A stretch of 19,464 nucleotides of DNA from a virus (Duplodnaviria; Heunggongvirae; Uroviricota; Caudoviricetes): the IMG/VR virus record IMGVR_UViG_2671180366_000014. One strand, written 5' to 3'. A program made the translations under genes and the position numbers. A model generated the notes under the pieces. That model saw only the letters and a program-made list of their open reading frames with translations. It did not search any database and had not been told where the DNA came from. Shown one piece after another: positions 1,011 through 19,464 of the stretch (positions are counted from its first letter, which is position 1; the number at the start of each line of letters is the position of its first letter).

Positions 1011-1322
1011 TGTGAAGGCTGAAAAGTAAGAATTAGTGTTACGAGTTACTCAATATTGAATCTGTTTGTAGAGTATTGGCTTCAATGCCGCATTGTAGCT
1101 GGTTTCTTCCTAATGCGATTTTTGATTACGTACACCCTTATGTACACGGTTTTTTCGGGTGCTTTGGTCAAAAGCCATTGTCTACATCGCTCACGATCGA
1201 GGTGTGTAACCCTGTTCAGGCTTGTTGTACTGCGCACGCGTATTGCTCGTGAAATTGATTGTGAGAGGTAAGTTAATCGCTATTTTTAGGAAGTGTATTT
1301 ACATAGAATGGGGAAACGGACT

Positions 1323-1353
1323 AAAAAGCTGCCTGTATGATAGGCAGCTTTTT
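1323..1353. terminator. bidirectional rho-independent terminator
   Basis: AAAAAGCTGCCT-gtatgat-AGGCAGCTTTTT: GC-containing stem flanked by an A-run and a T-run, 18 bp downstream of the stop of the 254-aa minus-strand gene. Confidence 0.55.
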
Positions 1354-1370
1354 AGGCTTACTTATTCCAT

Positions 1371-2135
1371 TTATCGCATTTGTGCTTCTTCTTCACGAAT
1401 ACGCTGAATAGCATTTGCTAAACGCAATTTGGAGTTGTCATCCCAATCTTGGGTTCTTTGGCCTACTGGTGCACATGGGGTAATTGAACCACTAACCAGC
1501 ATTTGACGAACTTCAGCAACTTCTTGTGCACTGATAGAAACGTGTGGTGAATGTGGGTTTTTGGTATCCATAATCAGCCCCCTCTGCAATAGAGCTTCGT
1601 TTACTTCGCTAATGGTTGAAACAGAGTCTTCTACTAATGATGCGTTAGTCCTGAAGTCTAAAAAACGTACAGTGCCGCCAGTGTATGGGTCAAGCTTTTT
1701 AGATTCTTCAATTGCTGATCTTGCGCAATGGCTATACATCCAGTTTTGCGCAGCAGCACCGCATCCTGAGCCTGTAAAGACAGCGAACAGTTCTTCCGTT
1801 TCGTTATTTTTTACAACTAATTTTTGACCTTTATCAAAAATCACTTCATTAGTTGATTTTTTCACAATATGTAAATTTACCGATTGACCAGTAGGTAAAA
1901 CAACTGGTGGTTCTTGTTGAGATAGGTCTCCTCGCCACCAATGCTTCCATAACTGAATCAAAAGACCATCACCGGCTAAAAGCATAACAAAATCATTTCG
2001 TGGAGCTAGCTTACCGAAGCCGGTATCGTCAATATACAGGATATGACCATCGTAGCCATGTGGGCTAAGATCAACAGACCACCTAGAGTCGGTCGCTACT
2101 AAGGCGTTAACACGATCATATACCGTTGTAGTCAT
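1371..2135 (-). CDS. hypothetical protein, 254 aa
   Basis: Long ORF followed by a terminator hairpin; weak RBS; no recognisable motif. Confidence 0.6.
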   Translation of the reverse strand: MTTTVYDRVNALVATDSRWSVDLSPHGYDGHILYIDDTGFGKLAPRNDFVMLLAGDGLLIQLWKHWWRGDLSQQEPPVVLPTGQSVNLHIVKKSTNEVIFDKGQKLVVKNNETEELFAVFTGSGCGAAAQNWMYSHCARSAIEESKKLDPYTGGTVRFLDFRTNASLVEDSVSTISEVNEALLQRGLIMDTKNPHSPHVSISAQEVAEVRQMLVSGSITPCAPVGQRTQDWDDNSKLRLANAIQRIREEEAQMR

Positions 2136-2304
2136 TATAGATGCTCATAAACCATTAAGGTTCAAAAACTCTATAGCAAATGTTGAAAGAAGCAAATTGA
2201 TTATACTTATTAATGCGATGTTGGGTGTCTTGATCTTTTAGCTGATGCTATGCGAAAGCAACGACAGTTTTGCTTGGTCATTGTAGTAAGACACCTCCTT
2301 TGCT

Positions 2305-2592
2305 TTATCGTAGCTGGCAATCTTTATCGCGATAACGCCTGAAGTACCCTCTCGCTTCCTCATCCATACCAAGAGCCGAATGAGTCCGCTTAACTGCCTG
2401 TCTTAAATCTCCGAATCTGTCTGTAGTTGCTGGTGGGCGTGCCGCCTTACGGATACATTCAGAGCGTCTGTTTGCTGCATGTTCACGTTCTTTATCGCCA
2501 TCTGCCAGCATCATGACTTCTGCCCATCGTGCGGCAGCTCTCCGGTATAGCCCTTTTGACTCCAGCTCTTCAGCTTTCCTGTCCCTTATCAT
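2305..2592 (-). CDS. PerC-family-like small transcriptional activator, 95 aa (tentative)
   Basis: N-terminus MIRDRKAEELESKGLYRRAAARWAEVM resembles PerC/Pch-type regulators of enterobacterial islands, recalled from memory; small basic protein. Confidence 0.5.
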   Translation of the reverse strand: MIRDRKAEELESKGLYRRAAARWAEVMMLADGDKEREHAANRRSECIRKAARPPATTDRFGDLRQAVKRTHSALGMDEEARGYFRRYRDKDCQLR

Positions 2593-2621
2593 TTCTGCCT
2601 CTCAGATTATATAGATAAGCA

Positions 2622-2728
2622 AAAAGGTGTTGGTTCAGTTGGTTCAGTTGGTTCAATTTGTAAAGAGCGTTGTTTTTATTGTGTTTTTTCTAAAATATTG
2701 AACCAACATCAACTCATTTTGAACCAAC
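2622..2728. repeat. left iteron-like cluster: 3 tandem GTTGGTTCA (2629-2655) plus 2 inverted copies TGAACCAAC (2699-2707, 2720-2728)
   Basis: Read directly. 2622-2665 is the exact reverse complement of 10256-10299 (44 bp); the flanking copies mirror the right-hand cluster with indels. Confidence 0.85.
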
Positions 2729-3208
2729 AAAAAGTGTCCGTGAACTAACACTCTGTCAAATAGTCACTACATATATTAACGGTGAAGACTAAATCCGCCA
2801 GCAAATAGCTTATATAGCACCGCTTTATGCCGCAGTTATGCTGGAACAGTAATCATTTCACAGAACCGCCTAACTACTATATGGCACCTGCTAAAAAGCA
2901 CATCAGCCTAGTCAGTTGATCGGTGCATGGATATCCTAACAATTCAACTATATAACGTGATCTCCCATGTCGATCTACTGTCATGCAATGATTAACAAAC
3001 ACATAGACACATCTGCTTGGCGCATTGATTAATCACTGATCATCCATCAGGATATGCGAACCACCGTCACCAGGTTAGGATGATTCTCAAAAGCCACCTG
3101 TATTCAATGCCTTTGATGGGTTTCATCCATAGTTATTTTCTCGTGACTGACATGGAGATTTTGATTTCAAGGTGTGCAAAAACTATCGCAGAGTACAATG
3201 GAGCTCAA

Positions 3209-4165
3209 ATGACTGTGGCACCAAAAGATCAAAGTTTGAAATCTGTAAGGGTGGGCTTTTACACAAGCTCTGAGAATATTCGCACTAGTAACAAGGGGTT
3301 AACCGCAGAGGCCTTTAAAAATCTGTATGATCGGTGTTCTAAAGACTTCAAGATGACCCACTATGCAGACTTTGGTGAAAGAGAACTTAAAATTCATTTT
3401 CTAGACATCTCACCCGAGGATGGCTCCTACTTCGGATTCATGTCTCGAAGAAGAAAAAGCGCAACACTGGCATATATTACAGATAAAGAGTGGGTGGAAG
3501 AGAAAATCCCTCTAGCCGGGGCAAAGACTCTTTCAGAACGTACATACTTTATTTATTATCCTCAGACAGACATTCTAGTATTGTCTTTAAATCATTTAGG
3601 TCCACGCCATAGTGACTTAGCCTTCCTTCTTTTCAACTCCAGTGATCGCGGAGTCCCTGTTTCTTTTGAAGCCATTTGGAAAGAAGAAAGCATCAAAGAA
3701 CTACTCGAAACTGGATCCAATCTAAGAAGCTGCGAGATTTCTGTGGCCATCCCAAGAAACTTCAATGCCGCACAGTATCAACTCGATGGAATGTTCGCGA
3801 ATCAGATGATTGAGATGATCAGAGGCACCAGTTCAAGCCACCTGACTATTTCGTTACGCGGACATTCTCCATTAAAAAGAAAAGCAAAGGGATGGCTTGA
3901 GGATGACGTTAAAAAAAGCCTTAAGGAGATGCTAGAAAAGTTCCCTGGTGGTGATGGTCGTTTAACTTTTGAGAAAGCAAATGTTGTTGCTCAGGGCGAT
4001 AAAAAGAAGAAAAGTCTTGTAGACGAAGTTCTTACGGTAAAGAAGATGGTGCCTATCCAAGCAGATGGGTATCCGACCGATACTGACGTTAAAAATGCTA
4101 TGCTACAAGCAAAGAATGACAACCTTAGGTATCTAACCCAGTACTATTTGGTTAGTCAAACGTAA
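3209..4165 (+). CDS. hypothetical soluble protein, 318 aa (ORF opens at 3080)
   Basis: ATG at 3209 has GGAG 5 nt upstream; the ATG at 3080 has a poorly spaced AGG. Region looks AT-rich relative to the rest of the window. No motif recognised. Confidence 0.6.
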   Translation: MTVAPKDQSLKSVRVGFYTSSENIRTSNKGLTAEAFKNLYDRCSKDFKMTHYADFGERELKIHFLDISPEDGSYFGFMSRRRKSATLAYITDKEWVEEKIPLAGAKTLSERTYFIYYPQTDILVLSLNHLGPRHSDLAFLLFNSSDRGVPVSFEAIWKEESIKELLETGSNLRSCEISVAIPRNFNAAQYQLDGMFANQMIEMIRGTSSSHLTISLRGHSPLKRKAKGWLEDDVKKSLKEMLEKFPGGDGRLTFEKANVVAQGDKKKKSLVDEVLTVKKMVPIQADGYPTDTDVKNAMLQAKNDNLRYLTQYYLVSQT

Positions 4166-4177
4166 CAGGAATACATT

Positions 4178-4615
4178 ATGAGTTCTCGGAAATTGTTTGC
4201 TGCCAAGTCATTGTTTGCTCTAGCTATGGCTATTGCTGGTGCCCATTTTTTACACGACCTAGATCACAATGCTGTCATTTCGGCTGCTGGTGCTCTTTCA
4301 ACTATTTCTGGAGTTCTCTTTGGTTTTGTTTTGGCATCAGTCACCATGCTAAGTAGCTTTGATAGTTCAAAGGGAATTGTAGGCGCTCTAAAAAGTAACG
4401 GAGTACTAAAAGGCATTATTGAGGGGCTTTTTGATACAGGAACTACGCTGATCACAGCCTGCCTATTAGCAATGATCTCGATGTTTGCCCCTGTTGTCAG
4501 CAATCTGCCTCTGGATTATTATGCCCTGCTACTCGCAGGGGCATATTTGATTATATCAATGATAACTTTTTTCTTTAACTGGAAATCTTTATCTAAAATA
4601 ATAAGTTACATATGA
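4178..4615 (+). CDS. small integral membrane protein, 145 aa, about 4 predicted TM helices
   Basis: AGGAA 7 nt upstream of the ATG; starts 12 bp after the stop of the upstream gene; four hydrophobic stretches of ~20 aa. Confidence 0.7.
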   Translation: MSSRKLFAAKSLFALAMAIAGAHFLHDLDHNAVISAAGALSTISGVLFGFVLASVTMLSSFDSSKGIVGALKSNGVLKGIIEGLFDTGTTLITACLLAMISMFAPVVSNLPLDYYALLLAGAYLIISMITFFFNWKSLSKIISYI

Positions 4616-4952
4616 TAAATATTTCAAAATGAGTCCCCCTGCTACGGATAGTCCTTGGCTTAAAAAATACCGTCACCGCTGAATACCCACACAGTGCCCC
4701 CACCCATTTAGTTGGCATAATGTATTCAACTGATTGAGGAATGGCTCCTCTTTTACTACCAAACGGCCATCGCTGGCGCATTCATCCGCTGGTAGTGGAA
4801 CTTTTTAGCCATCAGCGCCTCCCTAAATCAGTTCCTTACATCGCTCAAATTCAACAACCATTGTTGTAATCTTGCTGCTATCAAGTAACGCCTTTGTATT
4901 ACGCCGACTTTATCTTGCCAGCAACATACGCCATCCGATAATTTCGATGTTA

Positions 4953-4968
4953 CGCGCGCGTACTTGTC
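4953..4968. repeat. 16-bp direct repeat CGCGCGCGTACTTGTC, copy 1
   Basis: Exact match to 5239-5254; a partial third copy GCGCGTACT lies at 5331-5339. Sits in a non-coding gap. Confidence 0.7.
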
Positions 4969-5238
4969 GCAAAATATCAGACAAAAGCCAGATTCAGAAC
5001 GTCGTGATAACCACCAGCACAACATGAGAGGTCATGTAACGCGATTTATCACACCAGATACATGTGATTGGTGTACCCGCATAAAACATTGTCATAGCGC
5101 GTCCTGTGCGCATATACGCCGATAATCAACACATCACCACCACTCTGTCTCGTGTAGAGAACAGTTTCATGGTACTCCCCTCCATTGTGTGCGTACTGGT
5201 CGGACGCAGTTGCAAAACTTTTTGCAACTGATACCCCT

Positions 5239-5254
5239 CGCGCGCGTACTTGTC
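5239..5254. repeat. 16-bp direct repeat CGCGCGCGTACTTGTC, copy 2
   Basis: Exact match to 4953-4968. Confidence 0.7.
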
Positions 5255-5446
5255 TCGAAATTGGTGTTTTGCTGTGGCAGTGATATCAGAAAAATCTTCC
5301 TGTTTCACATAAAGCGGATATGCGCGTACTGTAACGACCCCATCAACGGGATCGGATTTGAAATCCTGACCCAAGCTATGTACCAAATGCCATGTCTTGG
5401 ATATATGATGATTGCCATTCTAAACAAAGCTAAAGGGAGGGTTGGT

Positions 5447-5803
5447 GTGAGGGGGCAGGCAGTTATAATTATTTTGTTGGGTTTAATTGTCGCAAAGTTA
5501 TACCCGACTTTATCGATGGTGTTTTTTGCCATTATTGGCGCAGCCATCTTTACTTATATCATTAAACATACCGCCTTGTGGTTCTATAAAATTGATATAG
5601 TTCAGAAGTTTGTACGTCCTGTGTCGATGTTATTACTAGCATTAATACCAATTGGTGTTGCTTATGTAATTGATGTTTTTTACCCTTCGGACACTGAAAG
5701 GTGGTTGATAGTTTTGTATTGTTATATTGGTGTAGCTCTCTTTTGTGGATTTCATTGGTGTTTCGAAAAGATCAATGACTCTATTTCAAAGAATAAAGAT
5801 TGA
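5447..5803 (+). CDS. small integral membrane protein, ~119 aa, about 4 TM helices (start uncertain)
   Basis: GTG at 5447 preceded by GGGAGG with 6-nt spacing; alternative ATGs at 5405/5408 lack an RBS. The upstream part of ORF 5189..5803 is not protein-like. Confidence 0.45.
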   Translation: MRGQAVIIILLGLIVAKLYPTLSMVFFAIIGAAIFTYIIKHTALWFYKIDIVQKFVRPVSMLLLALIPIGVAYVIDVFYPSDTERWLIVLYCYIGVALFCGFHWCFEKINDSISKNKD

Positions 5804-5822
5804 GGCCATCCGTGGCCATTCA

Positions 5823-7940
5823 CTAGTCATTATCTGGATCATTAGATAGCCAAGTAATGATGCCCAGTCTGGCGATGGTCCGTTTTTCCTGTTCAGGAAG
5901 AGAGTTAAAAAAACTCTTCCATTGAGGGGAGCGCCTGATACGTGAATCAACAATGTGCCCAGGCGCTTTTCCGTGTAGATTTTTTACTGCGCTCTGGAAG
6001 GCTGGCGAGGCAATTAATTTATCCGCAGCATCAGCCGCCCCTGCTCCACCAGCTAATCGAGCTTTACTCGCCAATCTTGCTCCAATATCAGCCCCAGCAA
6101 TGGCTCCAAGCGATCCAAAATGAGCGCCTACCATCGTGCCTATTTTTTGAATGTGTTTTGCTGCTAGTTCGTATGGAGCTGTTACCCGATTAAATCTGTT
6201 TACAAACTCATTCAGCTTACCAGTAGATATTTCATGCGCTTTAGCATTTTTTATTGCTCTGGCAACTTTGTATACATCATATAGTCCGCTCATTGTTTCT
6301 TTTGGCAAATGTTCAGCCAAAGTCTTTAGCTGTCCACTGTGTTGCAAGTTTTGCCACCAATCTGCAAAGCCAGATGGATTAAAGTCGGCCCCACGCTTCC
6401 CAGAGGAAAGCATATCTCTTAATGCTGTTCCTACTAGCTCCCTTCGCAATGTTCTTGATGGAGTATTTTGCATAATCTCACGAAACCCTCTCGCATCACC
6501 TTTTGCCATAGATTGAAGAGAATTCGTTACTTTATACGCTATATCCCCATTAAGTGTTTTCCCGCGAAGATTTACCATTTGCCTTTCTAAGTTTTTTCTC
6601 ATAGCTACAAGGCGTTGTGCGACTTCGAAATCTCGCAAGTATCCAGTATTGGATAAGACAGATTTTTGGTCTTCAGCTAAAGCTCCATATAGTCTTGATA
6701 GCGCTTCTTTATCAGCATCTTTGTATGGCCCCTGCTTTTTATTTAGGGCATCACCAACTAAACGCCTTTGCCTGTTTAAATTTGCATACGTTAGGATGCT
6801 ATCTGGGCCGGGGTTTATTGCTGTAAAAACTCGCTTTTCTATTGGGTCAAGATTATCCCACCCTCCTAAATCATCAGCGATTTTTTCCAGCATAGTGCTT
6901 GTGTTATTTGCTTCGACTTTTGTTCTTGGTGATAGAGCGGAATCAACACGTTTATATAACTGATCACTACGGTTTTTTAGTGCTTCCATTCTACTATTTA
7001 TCTGATAAATATATTTTTCGCTCATAGCTAACGCATCTGGCGCACCAGCAACATCATCGATTATCTTGCCAGCACTAGAGGCTAATTCGCTTATTGCTTT
7101 ATCTTCTTGAGCTTTTAACGCTGATCCTGTCCGTGACTTTAGGGCTTGCTCTACAGCTTGGTATTGCTCATTTCCTGATAAATGAGAAGGAAGAACTGAA
7201 TCAACATGAAGCCTATTTGCAGCCTCAACAATTTCTTTCTGAGGTTTTAGATCTAGCCCTTCAAGCGAAGAGGCAAGATTTGGGTTGCCTTGTGCAGATA
7301 ACTTACGAATTTTCTCTTCGGCAGGAGTAATCCCCTCAATATCTGGAATCGAAGAAACATTCTTCTTGGTTAATTTCCCAGCTATTTTATTAATTGCAGG
7401 GCCAGCAAGTTCGGCTACAGGGCCAGCCACAGCGCCAATAGCAGCGCCGGAAGCAACATCGCTATTTGTTCCATTGGCTACAATAGCCCCTTCTCCAGCA
7501 CCAAGCCCTGCGGCGGCAGCCAGTCTTGCCGCCCCTTTGGGAACCTGAGAAATAATCCCACCACCACTAACAAATGGCGCTGCTTGTCCAACGAACTCAC
7601 CAACATCTTGTGCGGTTGATGGTTTTGCCGCTAACTTCTGCTGTAGAGACTGAATTGCGGCTTGCTCTTCTGGTGTCATATCCTGAAACAGGCCAACACC
7701 TTTACCAACATCCATCAATCCACTGAGAACGCCATACATAAAACGGTCGAAACCGTTAGCATTATTAACAACATTTTCCTGTCTGGAATTTTCCTCTGGT
7801 GAAACCAAAGGTGATTGCTGCTGTTCTGGTTGGGCATCAAGCACAAAACCATCAGGAAGCTGTGAACTATCAGGAAACTGTGAGTTATCAGGTTGTTCAT
7901 CGAGCACAAAACCTTCCGGTAAGATTACATTTGCTGCCAT
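5823..7940 (-). CDS. hypothetical large protein, 705 aa, Ala/Gly-rich with glycine-zipper-like segments
   Basis: AGGAA 6 nt upstream of the ATG; start overlaps the end of the upstream gene by 16 bp. N-terminal tandem repeat LPEGFVLDEQP / LPDGFVLDAQP. Confidence 0.8.
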   Translation of the reverse strand: MAANVILPEGFVLDEQPDNSQFPDSSQLPDGFVLDAQPEQQQSPLVSPEENSRQENVVNNANGFDRFMYGVLSGLMDVGKGVGLFQDMTPEEQAAIQSLQQKLAAKPSTAQDVGEFVGQAAPFVSGGGIISQVPKGAARLAAAAGLGAGEGAIVANGTNSDVASGAAIGAVAGPVAELAGPAINKIAGKLTKKNVSSIPDIEGITPAEEKIRKLSAQGNPNLASSLEGLDLKPQKEIVEAANRLHVDSVLPSHLSGNEQYQAVEQALKSRTGSALKAQEDKAISELASSAGKIIDDVAGAPDALAMSEKYIYQINSRMEALKNRSDQLYKRVDSALSPRTKVEANNTSTMLEKIADDLGGWDNLDPIEKRVFTAINPGPDSILTYANLNRQRRLVGDALNKKQGPYKDADKEALSRLYGALAEDQKSVLSNTGYLRDFEVAQRLVAMRKNLERQMVNLRGKTLNGDIAYKVTNSLQSMAKGDARGFREIMQNTPSRTLRRELVGTALRDMLSSGKRGADFNPSGFADWWQNLQHSGQLKTLAEHLPKETMSGLYDVYKVARAIKNAKAHEISTGKLNEFVNRFNRVTAPYELAAKHIQKIGTMVGAHFGSLGAIAGADIGARLASKARLAGGAGAADAADKLIASPAFQSAVKNLHGKAPGHIVDSRIRRSPQWKSFFNSLPEQEKRTIARLGIITWLSNDPDND

Positions 7941-9268
7941 TTTCCGTTCCTGTAAATGATTTTCTGACCAGTTTTAGGGTTGGTTGCCGTTGCGCCTTCT
8001 GATATTCCTCCGGTTGCCGCTTTTGCCTGTCCAGTGCCAGCCTGTGATGTAGGCTGCCCGGAAACATCGTCAAATAGCTTCGCTTTCCTTCTTTCAAGGC
8101 TTTTTCTTAGCCCCTGAGGAATAGTTTCTCCATATGTATCGAGATACTCGTCAACCTGCTGGTTAAACTGCTGCCCCATAGCATTGGCGTTGATTTTTGC
8201 GGCGTTAACAATGTTATCCTTTGCCTCCTGCGACAGGCCGTTTCCAGCATTAAGCTGGTCTATGTATCCTTTGATTTGTCCCCATATGCCATCAGACCGC
8301 ATTACCTGAACCTGTTCGCCTTCACGAACGACTGACTGCGGGTCAAGAGATTTCATGTAGTTGAAGATAATCCCAAGTTGGGCAGCGCCAGTATTTACCT
8401 TGCTAAGGGCTTGCAGAGAGTTTGCCGCCGCTCTGACAGAGTTATAATTTTTGCCAAAATTGGTAATGTCAGAATTTAATCCCTTAATTAAGTCTGCTGA
8501 CGGCTTACCTTTTTGCCCCAGCTCCATTAGCTTCAATCCCATCTCATCTGAGTGAATTTGTGCTCGCTGAGCCCTGTCTAGTTGAGCGTTCTGGATATTT
8601 GCCCATCCTCTCGCGTTCTCCATGTCAGCCTGACGCATACTTTCATCCAGTCGCCCTTGCTCAAGTCGACGACCTTCCATTTGATCTTTGATATCGAAAT
8701 ACTTCTCATGACCGAGAGAAAACAGCGCCAGATTACCTGCGAAATGCTGGAAGCCCTGCGGGTCATTAACCTGCATTTCAGCAATAGTTTCTGGAGGGAT
8801 ACCTAAACGACGCATCTCCTGCTCATTATCTATCATGAACCTGCCAAATGCGCCCGGACCAAGCGATGAGGCTACCTGTGCTTTGAGCGCCAGATTGCCA
8901 TAATCATCCCTTTGAGCATCATCGACATAACTCATCCCTTTACGGACTTCCTCAAACTCTTCTGGGAATGCTGTAATAAGATTACGCATCTGCTCCCTGT
9001 CACCGGACGCATAAGCATCTGCATAACCTTTCTGGAATGCCGCTTTACGCTCCTGCTGTTGCTGCTGCTTATAAATATCAGCAACTCCAGCCAGACCACG
9101 AAGACCTGTCAGAGCAACGTTATTTGCACCTGAGCGAGCCAGTTCATTGTTTTCGCGGATCAGACCAAGCGTTGCGTTAATGTCGCTTGCCTTTGGCGCA
9201 TTCTCATTTTGCGTACCGATGCCAGCCAGAAAACCACCAGAATTAATACCCTGTTGCCACGTAGCCAT
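7925..9268 (-). CDS. hypothetical protein, 447 aa, Gln/Ala-rich, probably coiled-coil
   Basis: ORF 7925..9280 opens on GTG; first ATG at 9268 (MATWQQ...) lies 4 nt after the stop of the 57-aa ORF. Contains a QQQQQ tract. Confidence 0.8.
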   Translation of the reverse strand: MATWQQGINSGGFLAGIGTQNENAPKASDINATLGLIRENNELARSGANNVALTGLRGLAGVADIYKQQQQQERKAAFQKGYADAYASGDREQMRNLITAFPEEFEEVRKGMSYVDDAQRDDYGNLALKAQVASSLGPGAFGRFMIDNEQEMRRLGIPPETIAEMQVNDPQGFQHFAGNLALFSLGHEKYFDIKDQMEGRRLEQGRLDESMRQADMENARGWANIQNAQLDRAQRAQIHSDEMGLKLMELGQKGKPSADLIKGLNSDITNFGKNYNSVRAAANSLQALSKVNTGAAQLGIIFNYMKSLDPQSVVREGEQVQVMRSDGIWGQIKGYIDQLNAGNGLSQEAKDNIVNAAKINANAMGQQFNQQVDEYLDTYGETIPQGLRKSLERRKAKLFDDVSGQPTSQAGTGQAKAATGGISEGATATNPKTGQKIIYRNGKWQQM

Positions 9269-9272
9269 AAAT

Positions 9273-9446
9273 TTACCCACGTCCAGTTAAAGTGTAAGCC
9301 AGCGCCTTATCCATTAATCCCCGAGCAATTTCGTGGATCGTTGGCGCAACTCCTACCTCTGATTTTTTACGCTGCTCCTCCTGAATTTTCTTTATCGCTT
9401 CCATTTGCTTCTCACTTATCAATACTGGCTTTACTGAAATAGCCAT
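9273..9446 (-). CDS. small protein, 57 aa (MAISVKPVLISEKQMEAIKK...), not in the supplied ORF track
   Basis: Translated by hand on the minus strand: ATG at 9446 with GGGGG 4 nt upstream, stop TAA at 9273-9275 followed by ATTT-ATG of the 447-aa gene. Confidence 0.5.
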   Translation of the reverse strand: MAISVKPVLISEKQMEAIKKIQEEQRKKSEVGVAPTIHEIARGLMDKALAYTLTGRG

Positions 9447-10085: not shown

Positions 10086-10181
10086 CAATCTCCCACTGAA
10101 ACCAGTGATGTGGTGTTCAGATTTCGTAAAACACTCTCTAATGCCAGCCAGATGTTGTGCTCATCAATTCAGTCACATTGT

Positions 10182-10299
10182 GTTGGTTCAAAATACCGTG
10201 TTGTTGGTTCAGTGTTGGTTCAATAAAAAGAATAAAATCCTTATAAAACAATACACTTTACAAATTGAACCAACTGAACCAACTGAACCAACACCTTTT
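10182..10299. repeat. right iteron-like cluster: GTTGGTTCA at 10182, 10203, 10214 plus 3 tandem TGAACCAAC (10266-10292)
   Basis: Read directly; mirror image of the left cluster. Sits between the primase stop (10318) and the 152-aa gene start. Confidence 0.85.
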
Positions 10300-10317: not shown

Positions 10318-13074
10318 TCATTCTTCAGATGAGTTATAATCTCCTGGCTGGTAATTGAGTACATAAACGTTTATTTGTCGTCCCTGAATACGTGGTGATT
10401 TTCTTTGGTATCCACGACCGCTGTTTGGTGGGGTTAGCATCCCGGCTTTTTTCAACACTTCAGCAAACTGTTTTGCGTTGAAACCACATGCGATCTCCTT
10501 TTCAAATGTGGCCGGGAATGTGTAGAAAATCATTGGGCTTTCGTCATGTTCTCCACGCTGACGGTATCCGGCTAAATCTTTGATGGGCAAATCTGCCGGG
10601 CTGTATGGAAATGGTGCAAAACGGCTAAGCCCATAGGCATTAAGAAATGCCTCCGTTTGTTCAATAATCTGCTGATGTTCTTTGTTACCTGTGCCGAACT
10701 CGCGCAACCATGCGTTATAGCTGTGCTGTATCGCATCACGGCATGTCTGAGCATCCCAGCCTGTTACAACTTCGCCTAACAGCAATGCTGCCTCCAGAAT
10801 GGCAAATCGCGCGGCTACACGGTGAACCTGCTCACCATAATCGGATGGGATCAGGCTTCTCCATCTGCTTTCGCAATCACGAACAGTTTTAATAGCCTGT
10901 TGCTGGTGGTCTGCCAGCCATTTAATCCACTCACGCCCGGCTGCGCCGTGGTGATGCTGGTAAGCGTCTTTCAGTGCGTCTGCGTGCTGTTTTCCGTTCT
11001 GGTAATCGTGAAAGCGTACTGCTTTACTCAACGGAATATTCAGCAGTCGCACCAGTTGCCCGGCTTTGGTTTTTCGCCCGGAAGTAGCGATAAATGTTTC
11101 TAAATCCATTTCTCCGGTGCTGATTGCCACTGTACGCCAGCGTTTTAGATCCCGGTTTCCACCATCTTTAGCGCCTTGCAGTTTCCCTACACCGTTAAAT
11201 AACGCATAGGCAGACTGTGAAACGCTGACAGGATCAGCGCCCTGACCAACTTCATCAAGCGGCATTAATCCGTCATTGTGGGCGGCGGCCTCATTTGCCA
11301 GCCCCAGCGCGGTTCCGTACCACGTCAGCCGCAGTAAATCAGGGTTGCCGTATAAGCTGCTCGCCACGTTTGCCGTGGTGGTCTTACCCGCGCTCGACTG
11401 CTCATAGAAATGAATGCCGAACCCGTCAGCGCCCACCAGCCCAATCAATGGCGCTGCCAGTGCTGCGCCGATCCCGGTCATCATTGAATAGTTACCAAAG
11501 GCCAGACGCGCCACGTTATCACGCCAGCTTTTCGCGCTCCCTGAGACGGTATATCCGGCTGCGGCTGAGCTTCTCCCGCTGAACAGCACAGGATTTTCAG
11601 GTGTTCCGATGATTTCCCCATCAGGCATGATGTACGCTCCGCATTGCCAGCCAGTGGCATGAGCAACACGCCACAATTCACGAGAGCCACTGCGTTGTAG
11701 CCAGTCTGCCAGTATTGCTCTGAGGCTGCTTTTGGTCGTGACATTTACCCCACCAGCTTTAAGTGTGCGCCATCCTTCACGTTCACCAATATCAGCCAGT
11801 GGAATGGCAGCGGTTGTCGGCGTTTCAGAACCAAACGACAGCCAGCGAAGAATGAGATACTGGTCTTTATCGTCTCTGCCAGTACCGATAACGCTTAACG
11901 GAGAACATAACCAGCTTTCGTTATTGATGATTTCTCCACTCTGGCTGTCAGCTCTCGGAGATACCCAATAAATACCATCCTCGCGGCTTTCTATTCTTGG
12001 TTTCAGTGGGTCGGTATCCATAACCTTAAAATCGCTTCCCTCAATGGTCTGTGGCTGCTGTTTCACGCCATTACCCTGTGGTTGGTACATTGACTTATTG
12101 AACGCTTCTGTGGCGCATTTAATGCCGTGTTTTTGGTGGTAATCATTCCAGTCTGCTTTGTGATCTGTCGGGGGTAATGCCACCCATCCAGAAACAGATA
12201 AAGCTGCTTTTTCTGCTGCTATTCTCCCCGTGTTTTGTCTTCCTTCGCTGTGGTCGTTATCCGCAGCAATGATGATTTGTGCTGAAGGAAATTTATCCCG
12301 CAGTACCTGGGCGACATATAACAGGTTCCCGGCATCAATCGCCGCCACTGTCAGCGCCTCTGGACGAATTAAATGGGCAGATAATGCCGTTGCCAGCCCT
12401 TCTGCGATTAAGATGCTCTGTGTTGTTTCTGGTGCGTTTATGGCGTGATATGCCCCTCGCTTTGCTGAACCTGTCAGGAGTCTTTTTTCACCATGTGAGG
12501 TAATAGTCTGTGCTGCTGTGACTGCGCCGGATTTATCCACCAGCGCCAGCAACAGAGATCCATCGGGCAACACGGGGAATGTAAAATCACCTACCCCTTT
12601 CGCAACCAGATAATCAGATTTGCCGTTTACAGCCTTTCTGCGCATGTCATCAAACTGACGGGAAAACGTATCCCGTCTTTGTTGTTCGTCCTTCTCTGCC
12701 CTTTTCAGGCGCTCCTGTTCGCGTCGCTGGCGCTCGGTTTCCAGTTGTTCCCGTTTCTGGCTGGTGGCTTCTGGTGTTTCCGTTGTCCGGTAATCAATAC
12801 CCAGAACATCAGCGGCAAGAAGCGCCGCCTCTGTTGTGTCGCAGTTATTTACGCGTTTAATTAAATCCAGCCCATCACCAGCGCCGCACTGATTACAGAT
12901 GAAGCTACCGCGCCCGTTGTCATCGAACCGGAATCGATCTTTGCCCCCACATGCAGGGCAGGGAGCATGACGGCGCGGAGAGTCAGGGACATTTATGTTC
13001 AGGCAGCCCAGCACATGAGGCCAGTTGTTTTCAGACGCACTGATAACCTGACGGATAAGATCAATGTTTCGCAT
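10318..13074 (-). CDS. DNA primase-helicase, 918 aa (N-terminal zinc ribbon, Toprim-like primase, C-terminal P-loop NTPase; P4 alpha-like)
   Basis: CPACGG...CNQCG zinc-ribbon motif, acidic IIIAADND Toprim-like stretch, Walker A SSAGKTT, Walker-B-like LMPLDEV; GGGGG RBS 6 nt upstream of the ATG. Confidence 0.9.
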   Translation of the reverse strand: MRNIDLIRQVISASENNWPHVLGCLNINVPDSPRRHAPCPACGGKDRFRFDDNGRGSFICNQCGAGDGLDLIKRVNNCDTTEAALLAADVLGIDYRTTETPEATSQKREQLETERQRREQERLKRAEKDEQQRRDTFSRQFDDMRRKAVNGKSDYLVAKGVGDFTFPVLPDGSLLLALVDKSGAVTAAQTITSHGEKRLLTGSAKRGAYHAINAPETTQSILIAEGLATALSAHLIRPEALTVAAIDAGNLLYVAQVLRDKFPSAQIIIAADNDHSEGRQNTGRIAAEKAALSVSGWVALPPTDHKADWNDYHQKHGIKCATEAFNKSMYQPQGNGVKQQPQTIEGSDFKVMDTDPLKPRIESREDGIYWVSPRADSQSGEIINNESWLCSPLSVIGTGRDDKDQYLILRWLSFGSETPTTAAIPLADIGEREGWRTLKAGGVNVTTKSSLRAILADWLQRSGSRELWRVAHATGWQCGAYIMPDGEIIGTPENPVLFSGRSSAAAGYTVSGSAKSWRDNVARLAFGNYSMMTGIGAALAAPLIGLVGADGFGIHFYEQSSAGKTTTANVASSLYGNPDLLRLTWYGTALGLANEAAAHNDGLMPLDEVGQGADPVSVSQSAYALFNGVGKLQGAKDGGNRDLKRWRTVAISTGEMDLETFIATSGRKTKAGQLVRLLNIPLSKAVRFHDYQNGKQHADALKDAYQHHHGAAGREWIKWLADHQQQAIKTVRDCESRWRSLIPSDYGEQVHRVAARFAILEAALLLGEVVTGWDAQTCRDAIQHSYNAWLREFGTGNKEHQQIIEQTEAFLNAYGLSRFAPFPYSPADLPIKDLAGYRQRGEHDESPMIFYTFPATFEKEIACGFNAKQFAEVLKKAGMLTPPNSGRGYQRKSPRIQGRQINVYVLNYQPGDYNSSEE

Positions 13075-14163: not shown

Positions 14164-14354
14164 TTTTCACCCCCAAGAATTACCAGCTCTGCACGGGCAT
14201 CGTTAACCAAAGATGAGCACGCTTTAATCGCATCCACGACATCAGCAGCGTCCATTTCTTCAGCCGAAAGACTGACAGCAACCAGGACAGCCGCTGCTTG
14301 CTCGATTAATTGAAGTGCGGACGTAAGGCGAGGGGTATTAATTGAGTTATTCAT
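14160..14354 (-). CDS. small hypothetical protein, ~64 aa
   Basis: ORF 14160..14411; ATG at 14354 (MNNSINT) overlaps the upstream stop at 14347 by 8 bp. Confidence 0.45.
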   Translation of the reverse strand: MNNSINTPRLTSALQLIEQAAAVLVAVSLSAEEMDAADVVDAIKACSSLVNDARAELVILGGEK

Positions 14355-15414
14355 TGGTTGCCCCCGTCTTTCCTGGCATTTCGCCACCTTCCAGCAGGAA
14401 ATGAACGTCACGAACGGCGAGATCCAATATCGCGAGCAACGCCTTCAGTTTTTCGTCTCGTGAGGGAGAGCTGCTCACCAGAATGTCATTAATCACTTCT
14501 GTCAGTGTGATGATCTGGCTTGTGCGTTCGAGGGGGTCCATATGCACATCGTAGGTTTTAATCATGTGCCACCTCCATGCGGATACGACCAACAAAAAAG
14601 CAGACGTTATCGCGCACCAGAGAACGGCGAGCATCGCGTTCAGACTCGGCAGCAATATGATGAATTTTGGCGGTAATTGTCGGGCAATCGCGGCGAACTG
14701 CGGCGATAATCCAGATAAATTGCGGTTTTTGGGTAGGGGTAGTAGCCAGCATGTGGCAGCCTCCTTCAGATAGCAGGTTACGCTACCACCGGAAACGCCA
14801 ATTTCGCTGGTGGTAGCCCAGACAGGGTTGGCGTAACCGGCTCTGAAGGATACCGGCGCTTCCGAAGAAGCCCCCGCCTGAGCCACCATTGATTGACAAA
14901 GGCGCTGGATTATACACCAACGCCCAAAAAATGGGTGAGTCAGACCTACGACATAAAAAAAGACGCTCGGCGCGTCATATGTCGCCTTCAGAATTTTCAG
15001 GACGCCAATCCCGGCACCCGTTTTATGAGGTGCCTTATAACCATAAACCGTGTTGCCGCATAACGGCAAGCTCTTTTTTATGGACTCCGAAAACTCACTA
15101 TTGGAAGAACCAGAAGCACAGTACATCGCGCTCATTTCGTTAACGTCACGCGCGTGGACGAATGTTTTTGTGGAGTCACTACACGAGCAGAACAGGTGAT
15201 CTACGACCAGAAATTCTCTGGCGCAGCCGCTGACCTTCTCAACGCTAACACCATCGACCGTAATTTCTGACATAGTTAAGGCATCCGCTCCTACCACCAG
15301 AAAATGATAAACTTTGCTTGTATCTGCTGTATTAATGCCAGACTTTGCTGTCATATTGCCGGATTTTGGCGACATACCAGCCAGTGAAAATATCTTCTTC
15401 TGGGCGGTTAGCAT
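14347..15414 (-). CDS. hypothetical protein, 355-aa open frame; gene structure ambiguous
   Basis: ATG at 15414 has GGAGG 6 nt upstream. The frame then stays open to 14347, but contains a second strongly RBS-preceded in-frame ATG at 14565 and overlaps an alternative-frame 64-aa ORF (14558..14752) that has its own GGAGG. See findings. Confidence 0.4.
15075..15096. repeat. 22-bp motif TTTTTTATGGACTCCGAAAACT (copy B)
   Basis: 20 of 22 positions identical to 9601-9622; lies inside the 355-aa open frame. Confidence 0.7.
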
Positions 15415-17548: not shown

Positions 17549-18199
17549 TTAGTCGAGATCGTGGACAGCTAATAAAGCCCGTGAGATTTTTTCTAGGAAT
17601 GTGGCTTTTGCTATTCCTTTATGGGATATCCCTTCATCCTTGATTAAGGTTTCTATGTCACGGTATATAGCTGTGCGATTAGGTTTCCCATTTTGGATGT
17701 AGGAAGATGAGCCTGATTTTTTTATCAGCAGATGTACTATCAACCCCATCATTTTCATTGTCCCGTTTTCCTCATCCTGCTTTCTATGCTGCCCACGTCC
17801 GCTGCGGTTGGTTTCTTTGATGTAGTTTACTAACTGGAGTCCTCCAAGGTTTCGGGCTTTTTCTTCCCAGCCCTTGGTGCCACGCAAATCATCAATCGCT
17901 TCTGATATTTTCTGAACAATTATTTCTGGTGTATTTGTGTCAATAAATGGGTAAGAAGCTAAGAAAATATCAAGGGCATGGCAAGGCTCGTCTTTACTAG
18001 TTTTTTCACCTCTGTACACCTTGATAGCTCTGGCAAGATGAGTTCTGACAAAATCGACATATTCGAAATTTTCCTCAGGCACATCGCTAATGCGCATAGA
18101 TGGGTTTAGGCCAGCCAAGGCCACAGCCATTTCATGAGGGGTAATCGATACAGATGAACAAAGCCGTTCGATTGGCGATTTTCTCAAGATGTTGTTCAC
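17549..18199 (-). CDS. hypothetical protein, 216 aa
   Basis: ATG overlaps the integrase stop (ATGA), so it is co-transcribed with int; no motif recognised. Confidence 0.65.
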   Translation of the reverse strand: MNNILRKSPIERLCSSVSITPHEMAVALAGLNPSMRISDVPEENFEYVDFVRTHLARAIKVYRGEKTSKDEPCHALDIFLASYPFIDTNTPEIIVQKISEAIDDLRGTKGWEEKARNLGGLQLVNYIKETNRSGRGQHRKQDEENGTMKMMGLIVHLLIKKSGSSSYIQNGKPNRTAIYRDIETLIKDEGISHKGIAKATFLEKISRALLAVHDLD

Positions 18200-19464
18200 A
18201 TTTGCCTCCGGGCTTTATCGAATGGCGTTACGTTGTAGTCTTTCCCGCTTTCCAGTGCCACCAGCAGATCAGCCCACTGTGCCAGCGCAGCTTTACGCTC
18301 ATCAAAATACTGATGGCGGTTATAAATCCCCTCCACACCCTTAATGCGATGATTGAGGCATCGTTCCGCTACGACAGGATCAACACCCAATGCTGCTAAA
18401 TGAGTACGTGCGGTACGCCGGAAGTCGTGAATCGTGAAATTAGGCACATCCGGCATTTCGGCGCGAACCTTAGCCAGTGCTACGGGTAAAGTGCTTTCCT
18501 GAATATGTGGGATCATTCTGTTTTGCATCTTCCTGGCTGGAAGCACCCATGCGCTATTACATGAAAAGGTGTGTAGCTCTCTCAACCATTCAACGGCAGG
18601 AGAAGGTAGAGGTATATCAATAGGGTCTCCGTTTTTGCTGCGTTCTTCCGGCAAATGCCATACCGCACCATCTAAATCAAACTCTTCCCATCGCGCGGCG
18701 CATAACTCCATCTTACGAACGCATAGTGCCAGCAATAGCTTAAATGTCAGTTCGTTCTGGCGGCTGAATCCTTTTGCGGTGCGCATAGCCTCGAATAGCC
18801 TGATAAGCTCATCGCGAGTTAGCCAACGGTCGCGGGAAACCTCTTTACCACCAGCATCAGATACTTCAAACGCTGAACAAGGGTTTATTTCCAGAGCGTG
18901 GCGTTTTATCCCATAGTCAAAGATACGGCGTGTCCAGCGTAATACATCTGTTGCTATCGTTGGTGCTCCTCGGTCAACGATACCTTTCAACATGTCGTCA
19001 ATGTGGCGTGGCTTAACGTCCTCTACCTTCATATGCCCAATGCAGGGGTTAATATCCTTATCAATTCTCCGGCGAAGGATATCGGGATGTTTCCATCTCG
19101 GAAGTATCTGGCGCTCGAAGTATTCGGAGGCCAGATCTGAAACACGCATGGCGTTTTTCTCAGCCTCCATTTTTGCCAGTGCTTCAGCTTTTCGTTCCTG
19201 TTTCTCTGCTGCTACGTCATAGCCAAGAGCAACTCTGGCTGACAGCTCTTTTGCTGTTTCTCTGGCTTTTGATAGTGACAGTTCGGAGTAAGAGCCTATA
19301 ACCATAGCCCGCTGCTTTCCTGCGAGCTTATAGCGGAATCGCCAGAACGGGACTGTGTAGTTTTTGGGGTAGCAAATATAAAGGCCGTTGCCGTCTGCCT
19401 TGCCATCAAATCTGTCTCCCGCCTTTATCCATGCGCGGATCTGCATATCTGTGAGTTTTGGCAT
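18196..19464 (-). CDS. int: tyrosine site-specific integrase (P4 / CP4-57-like), 422 aa
   Basis: C-terminal catalytic signature HDFRRTARTHL ... GIYNRHQY (R, H-x-x-R, Y); N-terminal arm-binding-like region; start codon lies at the window edge. Confidence 0.9.
   Translation of the reverse strand: MPKLTDMQIRAWIKAGDRFDGKADGNGLYICYPKNYTVPFWRFRYKLAGKQRAMVIGSYSELSLSKARETAKELSARVALGYDVAAEKQERKAEALAKMEAEKNAMRVSDLASEYFERQILPRWKHPDILRRRIDKDINPCIGHMKVEDVKPRHIDDMLKGIVDRGAPTIATDVLRWTRRIFDYGIKRHALEINPCSAFEVSDAGGKEVSRDRWLTRDELIRLFEAMRTAKGFSRQNELTFKLLLALCVRKMELCAARWEEFDLDGAVWHLPEERSKNGDPIDIPLPSPAVEWLRELHTFSCNSAWVLPARKMQNRMIPHIQESTLPVALAKVRAEMPDVPNFTIHDFRRTARTHLAALGVDPVVAERCLNHRIKGVEGIYNRHQYFDERKAALAQWADLLVALESGKDYNVTPFDKARRQM

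Follow-up and report, generated by a model that had tools for sequence, protein, structure and literature searches.

What do two adjacent genes, here called A and B, do for the Escherichia coli chromosomal island that carries them? The question arises from a stretch of 19,464 nucleotides (hereafter the window), in which a first-pass annotation had proposed a soluble sensor paired with a membrane effector, carried by a satellite as defence cargo, belonging to no named family and possibly new. Gene A (3209-4165, plus strand) is a 957-nt coding sequence for a protein of 318 aa (RefSeq WP_001528727) that is predicted to be cytoplasmic, RexA-like and a distant member of the DUF6731 family. Gene B (4178-4615, plus strand) encodes a 145-aa, predicted four-helix inner-membrane protein resembling RexB (WP_000098670). 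By their ORF coordinates the two genes are 12 nt apart, and sequence inspection identified a ribosome-binding site for each on the plus strand: GGAG at 3200-3203, 5 nt ahead of the ATG at 3209, and AGGA at 4167-4170, 7 nt ahead of the ATG at 4178. The annotated arrangement of two plus-strand genes 12 bp apart, each with a good ribosome-binding site, was thereby confirmed.

The frame from the first ATG to the stop over gene A in the ORF list runs from 3080 to 4165 and would give 361 aa. The sequence places the real start at ATG 3209 and not at 3080, because GGAG lies at 3200-3203, because 31 homologues of 309-323 aa align with gene A from ATG 3209 onward and because RefSeq records the same coding sequence; in the Klebsiella copy, the alignment shows indels in the stretch 5' of 3209. 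Comparison of the E. coli and Klebsiella copies yielded dN/dS values of 0.056 for A and 0.065 for B, indicating that both are protein-coding genes under strong purifying selection; with a dN/dS of about 0.06 in both genes, a chance pair of open reading frames was rejected. The module had also been called richer in AT than the backbone, and its G+C content is indeed 40.9%, below the 45.7% of the window and the 51.1% of the primase gene. An AT content just as high recurs in several other stretches of the island.

Compared stretches of the window between 1300 and 6000 are 100% identical to E. coli ETEC6 (NZ_CP041627), where dinD and yicC flank the inserted island. The island encodes a tyrosine integrase (18196-19464, minus strand), a TOPRIM/DUF927 primase (10318-13074, minus strand) and perC (2305-2592, minus strand), together with an AlpA-type regulator, an Ash-family gene and a P22-type injectosome translocase gene. 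This gene set identifies it as a PICI-like phage satellite. The repeat-bounded region of the first-pass annotation was also found, its inverted repeats of 55 nt (2622-2676 and 10245-10299) being 95% complementary.

Blastn comparison with sister islands delimited a variable cargo slot in which the pair resides. Similarity in the backbone stops at 2729-2751 and is back at 4774-4944, so that the breaks set approximate limits of 2730-4773 for the slot (no strand applies), with conserved flanks at 2314-2729 and from 4774-4944 on. Megablast with window positions 1300-6000 found matches in about 553 of 5,426 complete E. coli genomes, typically over no more than perC and the DNA that follows the slot; only 41 E. 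coli genomes contain the A-B module, and the module had no megablast match among phage genomes. In sister islands the slot holds other genes, for example a 147-aa protein gene with an Abi-family gene (annotated as a pseudogene in the one copy inspected), two small genes accompanied by an ImmA/IrrE peptidase gene, one small HTH gene, or hypothetical genes alone. Since sister islands exist without the A-B pair, the pair is dispensable for the island. The content thus varies between conserved flanks and includes an Abi-family gene among the alternatives, as in a satellite hotspot. The same variable-slot pattern has been described for satellite defence hotspots (e.g. PMC9122126), and the likeness extends to those of P4-like elements and PICIs, where related islands differ in the accessory or defence genes that occupy a slot between conserved backbone genes. 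A search of the searchable literature found no description of this slot (from perC to the 131-aa/705-aa genes of the dinD-yicC island) or of its A-B cargo.

The DNA upstream of gene A had been described as a long AT-rich leader. The intergenic stretch does measure 616 nt (2593-3208) with 39% G+C; it is a composite, of which only 3024-3208 travels with the pair. Blastn against islands with other cargo assigned it to the island backbone as far as about 2729-2751. The window from 3024 to 4611, comprising the upstream region, A and B, shares 82% DNA identity with a Klebsiella satellite, and the mobile unit therefore consists of about 185 bp of upstream DNA plus the two genes. This co-moving upstream region (3024-3208, plus strand), presumed to hold the promoter and operator, contains a palindrome, TGATTAATCA (3026-3035), and an inverted repeat, CTGATCATCCATCAG (3036-3050), both conserved in the Klebsiella alignment. 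A promoter scan for the sigma-70 consensus at >=9/12 found no match within 2593-3208. Past the pair, a consensus scan identified a weak terminator-like hairpin with a T-run at 4736-4760 (plus strand), about 120 nt beyond the stop codon of B, as a possible transcript end; the call is tentative because such sites are no commoner than in shuffled sequence.

The association of A with B extends well beyond this island. At each of the 17 loci examined, the gene next after the A-like one, on the same strand, is B-like; the spacing, anything between an overlap of 38 nt and a gap of 25 nt, suggests co-transcription. The B-like genes at these loci encode proteins of 132-150 aa with four hydrophobic segments, one copy (L002) ending at a contig end. 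The order is kept even for A-like proteins only 17-22% identical to A, and A and B diverge in step. A related-locus search with the narrow A-family alignment returned three genomes only. The genomic settings are diverse: the pair lies directly 3' of an S24 cI-like repressor gene, in the same orientation, in the lambdoid prophage at locus L003, which is the rexAB position in lambda; in other loci it lies beside the primase in the Klebsiella satellite, between Q and the lysis genes in phage cdtI, next to a lysis cassette, beside DinI genes at one end of a Rahnella prophage, and next to the integrase of a 14.6-kb Vinavirales (tectivirus-like) element in Vibrio. Across satellites, lambdoid prophages and this Vibrio tectivirus-like element, the two genes travel together.

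Protein A is basic (pI 8.9). It had no match at E <=1 to Pfam models, including DUF6731, or to PADLOC models, and NCBIfam gave no significant match for A or B. In PHROGs, A belongs to phrog_7651 and B to phrog_8552, both families without assigned function. Homology searches recovered A-like proteins throughout the Enterobacterales, and relatives at 43-49% identity carry the Pfam domain DUF6731 (PF20505). Searching 1.84 billion cluster representatives with the A-family profile retrieved 136 proteins at E <=1e-3, with named members from Yersinia, Pseudoalteromonas, Shewanella and Vibrio; of the 94 full-length ones among them, retrieved with the profile of the narrow alignment A1, 83 match DUF6731 (best E 3e-68). 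The homologue of A at locus L003 scored 20 bits against DUF6731, for which the cut-off is 27. By these sequence comparisons A is a distant member of the DUF6731 family with demonstrable homology, and its own lack of a Pfam match at E <=1 places the enterobacterial subfamily (309-323 aa) outside the current DUF6731 model. Searches of the literature for DUF6731, PF20505, WP_001528727, WP_000098670 and PDC-M67 found no paper; PDC-M67, a PADLOC candidate system, gave weak matches to a few members of both the A and the B families and may therefore be a further relative.

To the structural side of the comparison we applied an AlphaFold2 model of the A monomer computed with the family alignment (pLDDT 79.8, pTM 0.73). 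In this model a beta-rich N-terminal domain extends as far as about residue 155, residues 160-282 make up a middle domain with four strands and three or four helices, and residues 291-310 form a C-terminal helix. Foldseek against the PDB returned lambda RexA (8twq_B) as the top match with an E value of 2.4e-6 and a probability of 1.0, followed by RdgC. In the model of A, the succession of strands and helices fits the split globular/dimerisation/globular layout of RexA. Superposition on the crystal form of RexA gave a poor global TM score of 0.33-0.36, plausibly because RexA was crystallised closed around its hinge, differing from the domain arrangement of the model. In its modelled form A has the RexA/RdgC-type fold, built from a globular domain in two parts, a central domain of the dimerisation type and a helix at the C-terminus.

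Sequence comparison of A with RexA gave weak but colinear signals. BLASTP aligned the two proteins over 128 residues with an E value of 0.005, spanning a GP..SDL motif (G131-P132..D136-L137) that is invariant across the A family, and in hhalign DUF6731 aligned with four RexA sequences over 143 columns at an E value of 0.0045. Hhalign gave no significant result for the A alignments with the single lambda RexA sequence (E 0.19 and 0.022), nor an informative one for the narrow alignment A1 with the four RexA sequences (E 0.15), and the A-family profile had no match among PDB sequences. The RexA models PF15969 and PDLC02339 did not match A at E <=1; in the positive control, lambda RexA was detected at 1e-96 and 1e-108 and the lambda proteins were recognised.

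Hydropathy analysis identified four hydrophobic segments in B, and an AlphaFold model of low confidence (pLDDT 68.7) contains four long helices. Charge distribution and the positive-inside rule predict a cytoplasmic location for both termini and for a central loop (about residues 61-84), and this loop is the most conserved part of the B family. The same topology has been predicted for RexB and for Sbash gp31, and mutations in the loop inactivate Sbash gp31 (PMC6426596). B and RexB are nearly equal in length (145 and 144 aa), with four hydrophobic segments at similar positions in both. BLASTP of B against RexB revealed no similarity, and the RexB models PF15968 and PDLC02340 had no match to B at E <=1. 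The connection of B to RexB is indirect: the B-like partners of two other DUF6731 genes, at L009 and at the Vibrio locus L018, match the PADLOC RexB model colinearly (E 1.2e-4 and 1.6e-4, respectively), and the L018 protein is clearly homologous to B of the window (tblastn E 6e-15). Alignment of the B family with a 20-sequence RexB profile in hhalign extended over 92 colinear columns with an E value of 3.6e-4 and a probability of 37%, scores that membrane helices inflate. A B-family HMM scored the single RexB sequence above only about 99.4% of composition-matched shuffles (p ~0.006), a marginal result. Among viral structures in BFVD, the B model had no fold match at E <0.001, and the 50 best-ranked matches did not include lambda RexB; the second-best, non-significant match was a 165-aa Sbash protein taken, from its length alone, to be gp31. 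Homology of B to RexB is therefore likely but not established, given a moderate shuffle control, the lack of a significant viral fold match and the position of RexB outside the top 50.

These data fit the architecture of the initial proposal, a sensor and a membrane effector that would serve as satellite defence cargo, in the RexA fold, the RexB resemblance and the variable slot; they do not support the suggestion of a possibly new pair outside any named family: the relatives of A are DUF6731 proteins, both proteins have PHROGs families, and the pair is remotely RexAB-like. RexAB is the oldest known and founding abortive-infection system. The pair is best explained, and rather probably so, as a RexAB-type two-component phage-exclusion (abortive-infection) module that is accessory cargo of a PICI-like satellite; an anti-phage function is probable. 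As in lambda RexAB, the sensor gene comes first and is adjacent to a gene for a four-TM protein of about 145 aa with predicted cytoplasmic termini and loop. The differences from lambda RexA/RexB (PF15969/PF15968; PDB 8TWQ) are a structure-based identity of about 15% between A and RexA, an additional 39 residues in A, and a separate upstream region for the window pair in a satellite slot, whereas rexAB is co-transcribed with the repressor.

Lambda RexAB, Sbash gp30/31, CarolAnn gp44/43 and P. putida RexABpp suggest, by analogy, a mechanism for the pair. In it, A would be a dimeric sensor that binds DNA non-specifically and is switched on by the infecting phage, through either one of its components or a DNA-protein intermediate. 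Once activated, A might engage the cytoplasmic loop of B, which would then oligomerise or open as a channel and depolarise the membrane. The ensuing fall in ATP would abort the infection through growth arrest or cell death, and the satellite and its host clone could thereby be protected from competing phages.

Only five Rex-like systems have been described so far (PMC12894663), and the pair can be compared with them. RexABpp of P. putida prophage P1 (PP_5643/PP_5644; Rosendahl et al. 2026, PMC12894663) differs in being prophage-borne and two genes from the repressor, and RexBpp is longer, with mutations reported up to residue 181. Sbash gp30/gp31, CarolAnn gp44/gp43 and Butters gp30/gp31 each combine, like A and B, a soluble protein and a four-TM protein in one operon. 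The purified soluble partners from these actinobacteriophages are longer than A (372 aa for Sbash gp30 and 370 aa for CarolAnn gp44). The Sbash genes overlap by 41 nt, and several DUF6731 pairs similarly overlap by 38 nt; the central cytoplasmic loop that is functionally important in Sbash gp31 is in B the part with the highest conservation. Sbash gp30 and gp31 nonetheless have no detectable sequence similarity to the pair (hhalign E 0.035 and 0.26).

Butters differs in its reverse logic, and the comparison raises an alternative in which A is the toxic or antiviral effector and B only keeps it sequestered until an infection sets it free. Such inverted polarity is how the Rex-like pair Butters gp30/gp31 operates (PMC12894663), and the architecture and tight operon linkage of A and B are compatible with either polarity. 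However, in four of the five described Rex-like systems neither partner is dispensable and the membrane protein is the effector (PMC12894663), and the conservation of the B loop fits a regulated effector, as judged from the Sbash gp31 loop mutants, at least as well as a passive anchor. We regard this inverted arrangement as unlikely.

The pair might instead mainly serve the life cycle of its element, either by biasing the lysogeny/induction switch or by modulating host proteolysis or energy through B. Lambda RexA acts on the bistable CI/Cro switch independently of RexB (PMC11077077), and in prophage L003 the pair points the same way as the repressor gene. In the window, however, the pair sits in a satellite cargo slot and not beside a cI repressor; most other loci also lack a neighbouring repressor and have the pair in moron or cargo positions. 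Retention of B in 17 of 17 loci and the existence of sister islands without the pair likewise speak against a life-cycle role, which seems to us improbable to a similar degree.

A narrower possibility concerns A in isolation. RdgC, the recombination-associated DNA-binding ring dimer that followed RexA in the Foldseek ranking, has in common with A a two-domain scaffold that had previously been reported for RexA; A could accordingly be imagined as an RdgC-like recombination or replication modulator for the element with B as an unrelated membrane neighbour, a combination that we consider very unlikely; a stand-alone function of the RdgC type was rejected. Least credible of all is a different membrane-coupled defence of the Kiwa kind, or an unrelated toxin/holin-like pair resembling Rex in size and layout: Kiwa likewise consists of a protein of about 300 aa and a four-TM protein (KwaB with DUF4868, and KwaA), and helical membrane proteins do yield weak spurious profile matches, but the pair does not show a KwaB DUF4868 domain with a four-TM KwaA gene upstream, and Kiwa was rejected. 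All of these alternatives are less well supported than the RexAB-type reading.

As a RexAB-like pair, A and B represent a further case of a known type of system and not a new principle. In the annotation of the island, two 'hypothetical proteins' of a variable cargo slot thereby become a defence candidate open to testing. A broader proposal, to which we give an even chance, is that DUF6731 proteins and their four-TM partners form a large unrecognised branch of the Rex superfamily across Gammaproteobacteria, carried by satellites, lambdoid prophages and tectivirus-like elements and missed by defence finders; its triggers would be unlike those of lambda Rex, and the satellite copy would protect both the satellite and its helper. 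A link between DUF6731 and Rex would assign a function to one uncharacterised Pfam family and two PHROGs families, and would mean that satellites carry a Rex-type defence that escapes the PADLOC, Pfam and NCBIfam models applied here. It would also provide diverse natural pairs for comparative and structural work. If the proposal is true, many natural variants would become available, 70 years after Benzer, for working out how a RexA-type sensor opens a RexB-type channel.

The cargo of the island is bracketed by an iteron block present in two inverted copies (2622-2736 and 10174-10299; three repeats of GTTGGTTCA), whose 55-nt arms are 95% complementary and which share a further 43-nt pair; 7.5 kb of cargo is enclosed between them. 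One copy directly adjoins the start of perC. The other lies against the stop codon of the primase gene (TOPRIM/DUF927) and looks like a replication origin. These iterons also adjoin the primase in a Klebsiella satellite (L023 8810-9089).

Within the bracketed region, two neighbouring palindromic elements, TGATTAATCA and CTGATCATCCATCAG, lie at 3026-3050, some 160-180 nt ahead of gene A, the RexA-like gene of the candidate module. Both are kept in the Klebsiella copy of the module and its upstream region, and they could serve as an operator for some regulator. Immediately downstream of the cargo slot, a plus-strand gene (5408-5803) encodes a 131-aa membrane protein; it is kept in the sister islands, and its product matches Bax1-I below threshold (E 1.6e-4; 22 bits, with the cut-off at 34). 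The minus strand at 5823-9280 carries a P22 gp20-type injectosome translocase gene (7925-9280; PF16928, E 1e-74) and a neighbouring gene for a 705-aa protein to which no family was assigned. It is unusual for a satellite to carry ejection-protein genes as cargo when, within the window, it has no capsid or tail genes.

Outside the iteron bracket, a 254-aa gene (1371-2135, minus strand) without a Pfam match to its product occupies the interval between dinD and perC. In two E. coli sister islands (H22 and H23), similarity to the window starts only at about 2509 and extends rightward; the dinD-side end of the island may therefore be a second variable region. Towards the other end, Rfam matches on the minus strand to a C4 antisense RNA (14806-14893, 79.9 bits) and the Hfq-binding RNA isrK (14956-15033, 67.8 bits) both fall within a long ORF (14347-15414) annotated as 'ash family protein'. 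These matches suggest a P1/P7-type C4-ant immunity cassette, and also that the ORF codes in part for RNA and not for protein.

Compared with locus L012 and two DUF6731 proteins, the PADLOC models PDC-M67A/B weakly matched two DUF6731 members, at E 7e-4, and one four-TM partner of the gene B type, at E 1e-3. Judged from these similarities, the candidate system PDC-M67 may be a further Rex-like pair, one previously marked as a defence candidate. A Rex-like pair, of 351 aa and 150 aa, is present in Vibrio phage 10N.286.54.F4_PE001 (PQ189356; L018 1389-2896), where it adjoins the integrase of an integrated 14.6-kb Vinavirales (tectivirus-like) element. Rex-type modules thus extend beyond tailed-phage prophages and their satellites.
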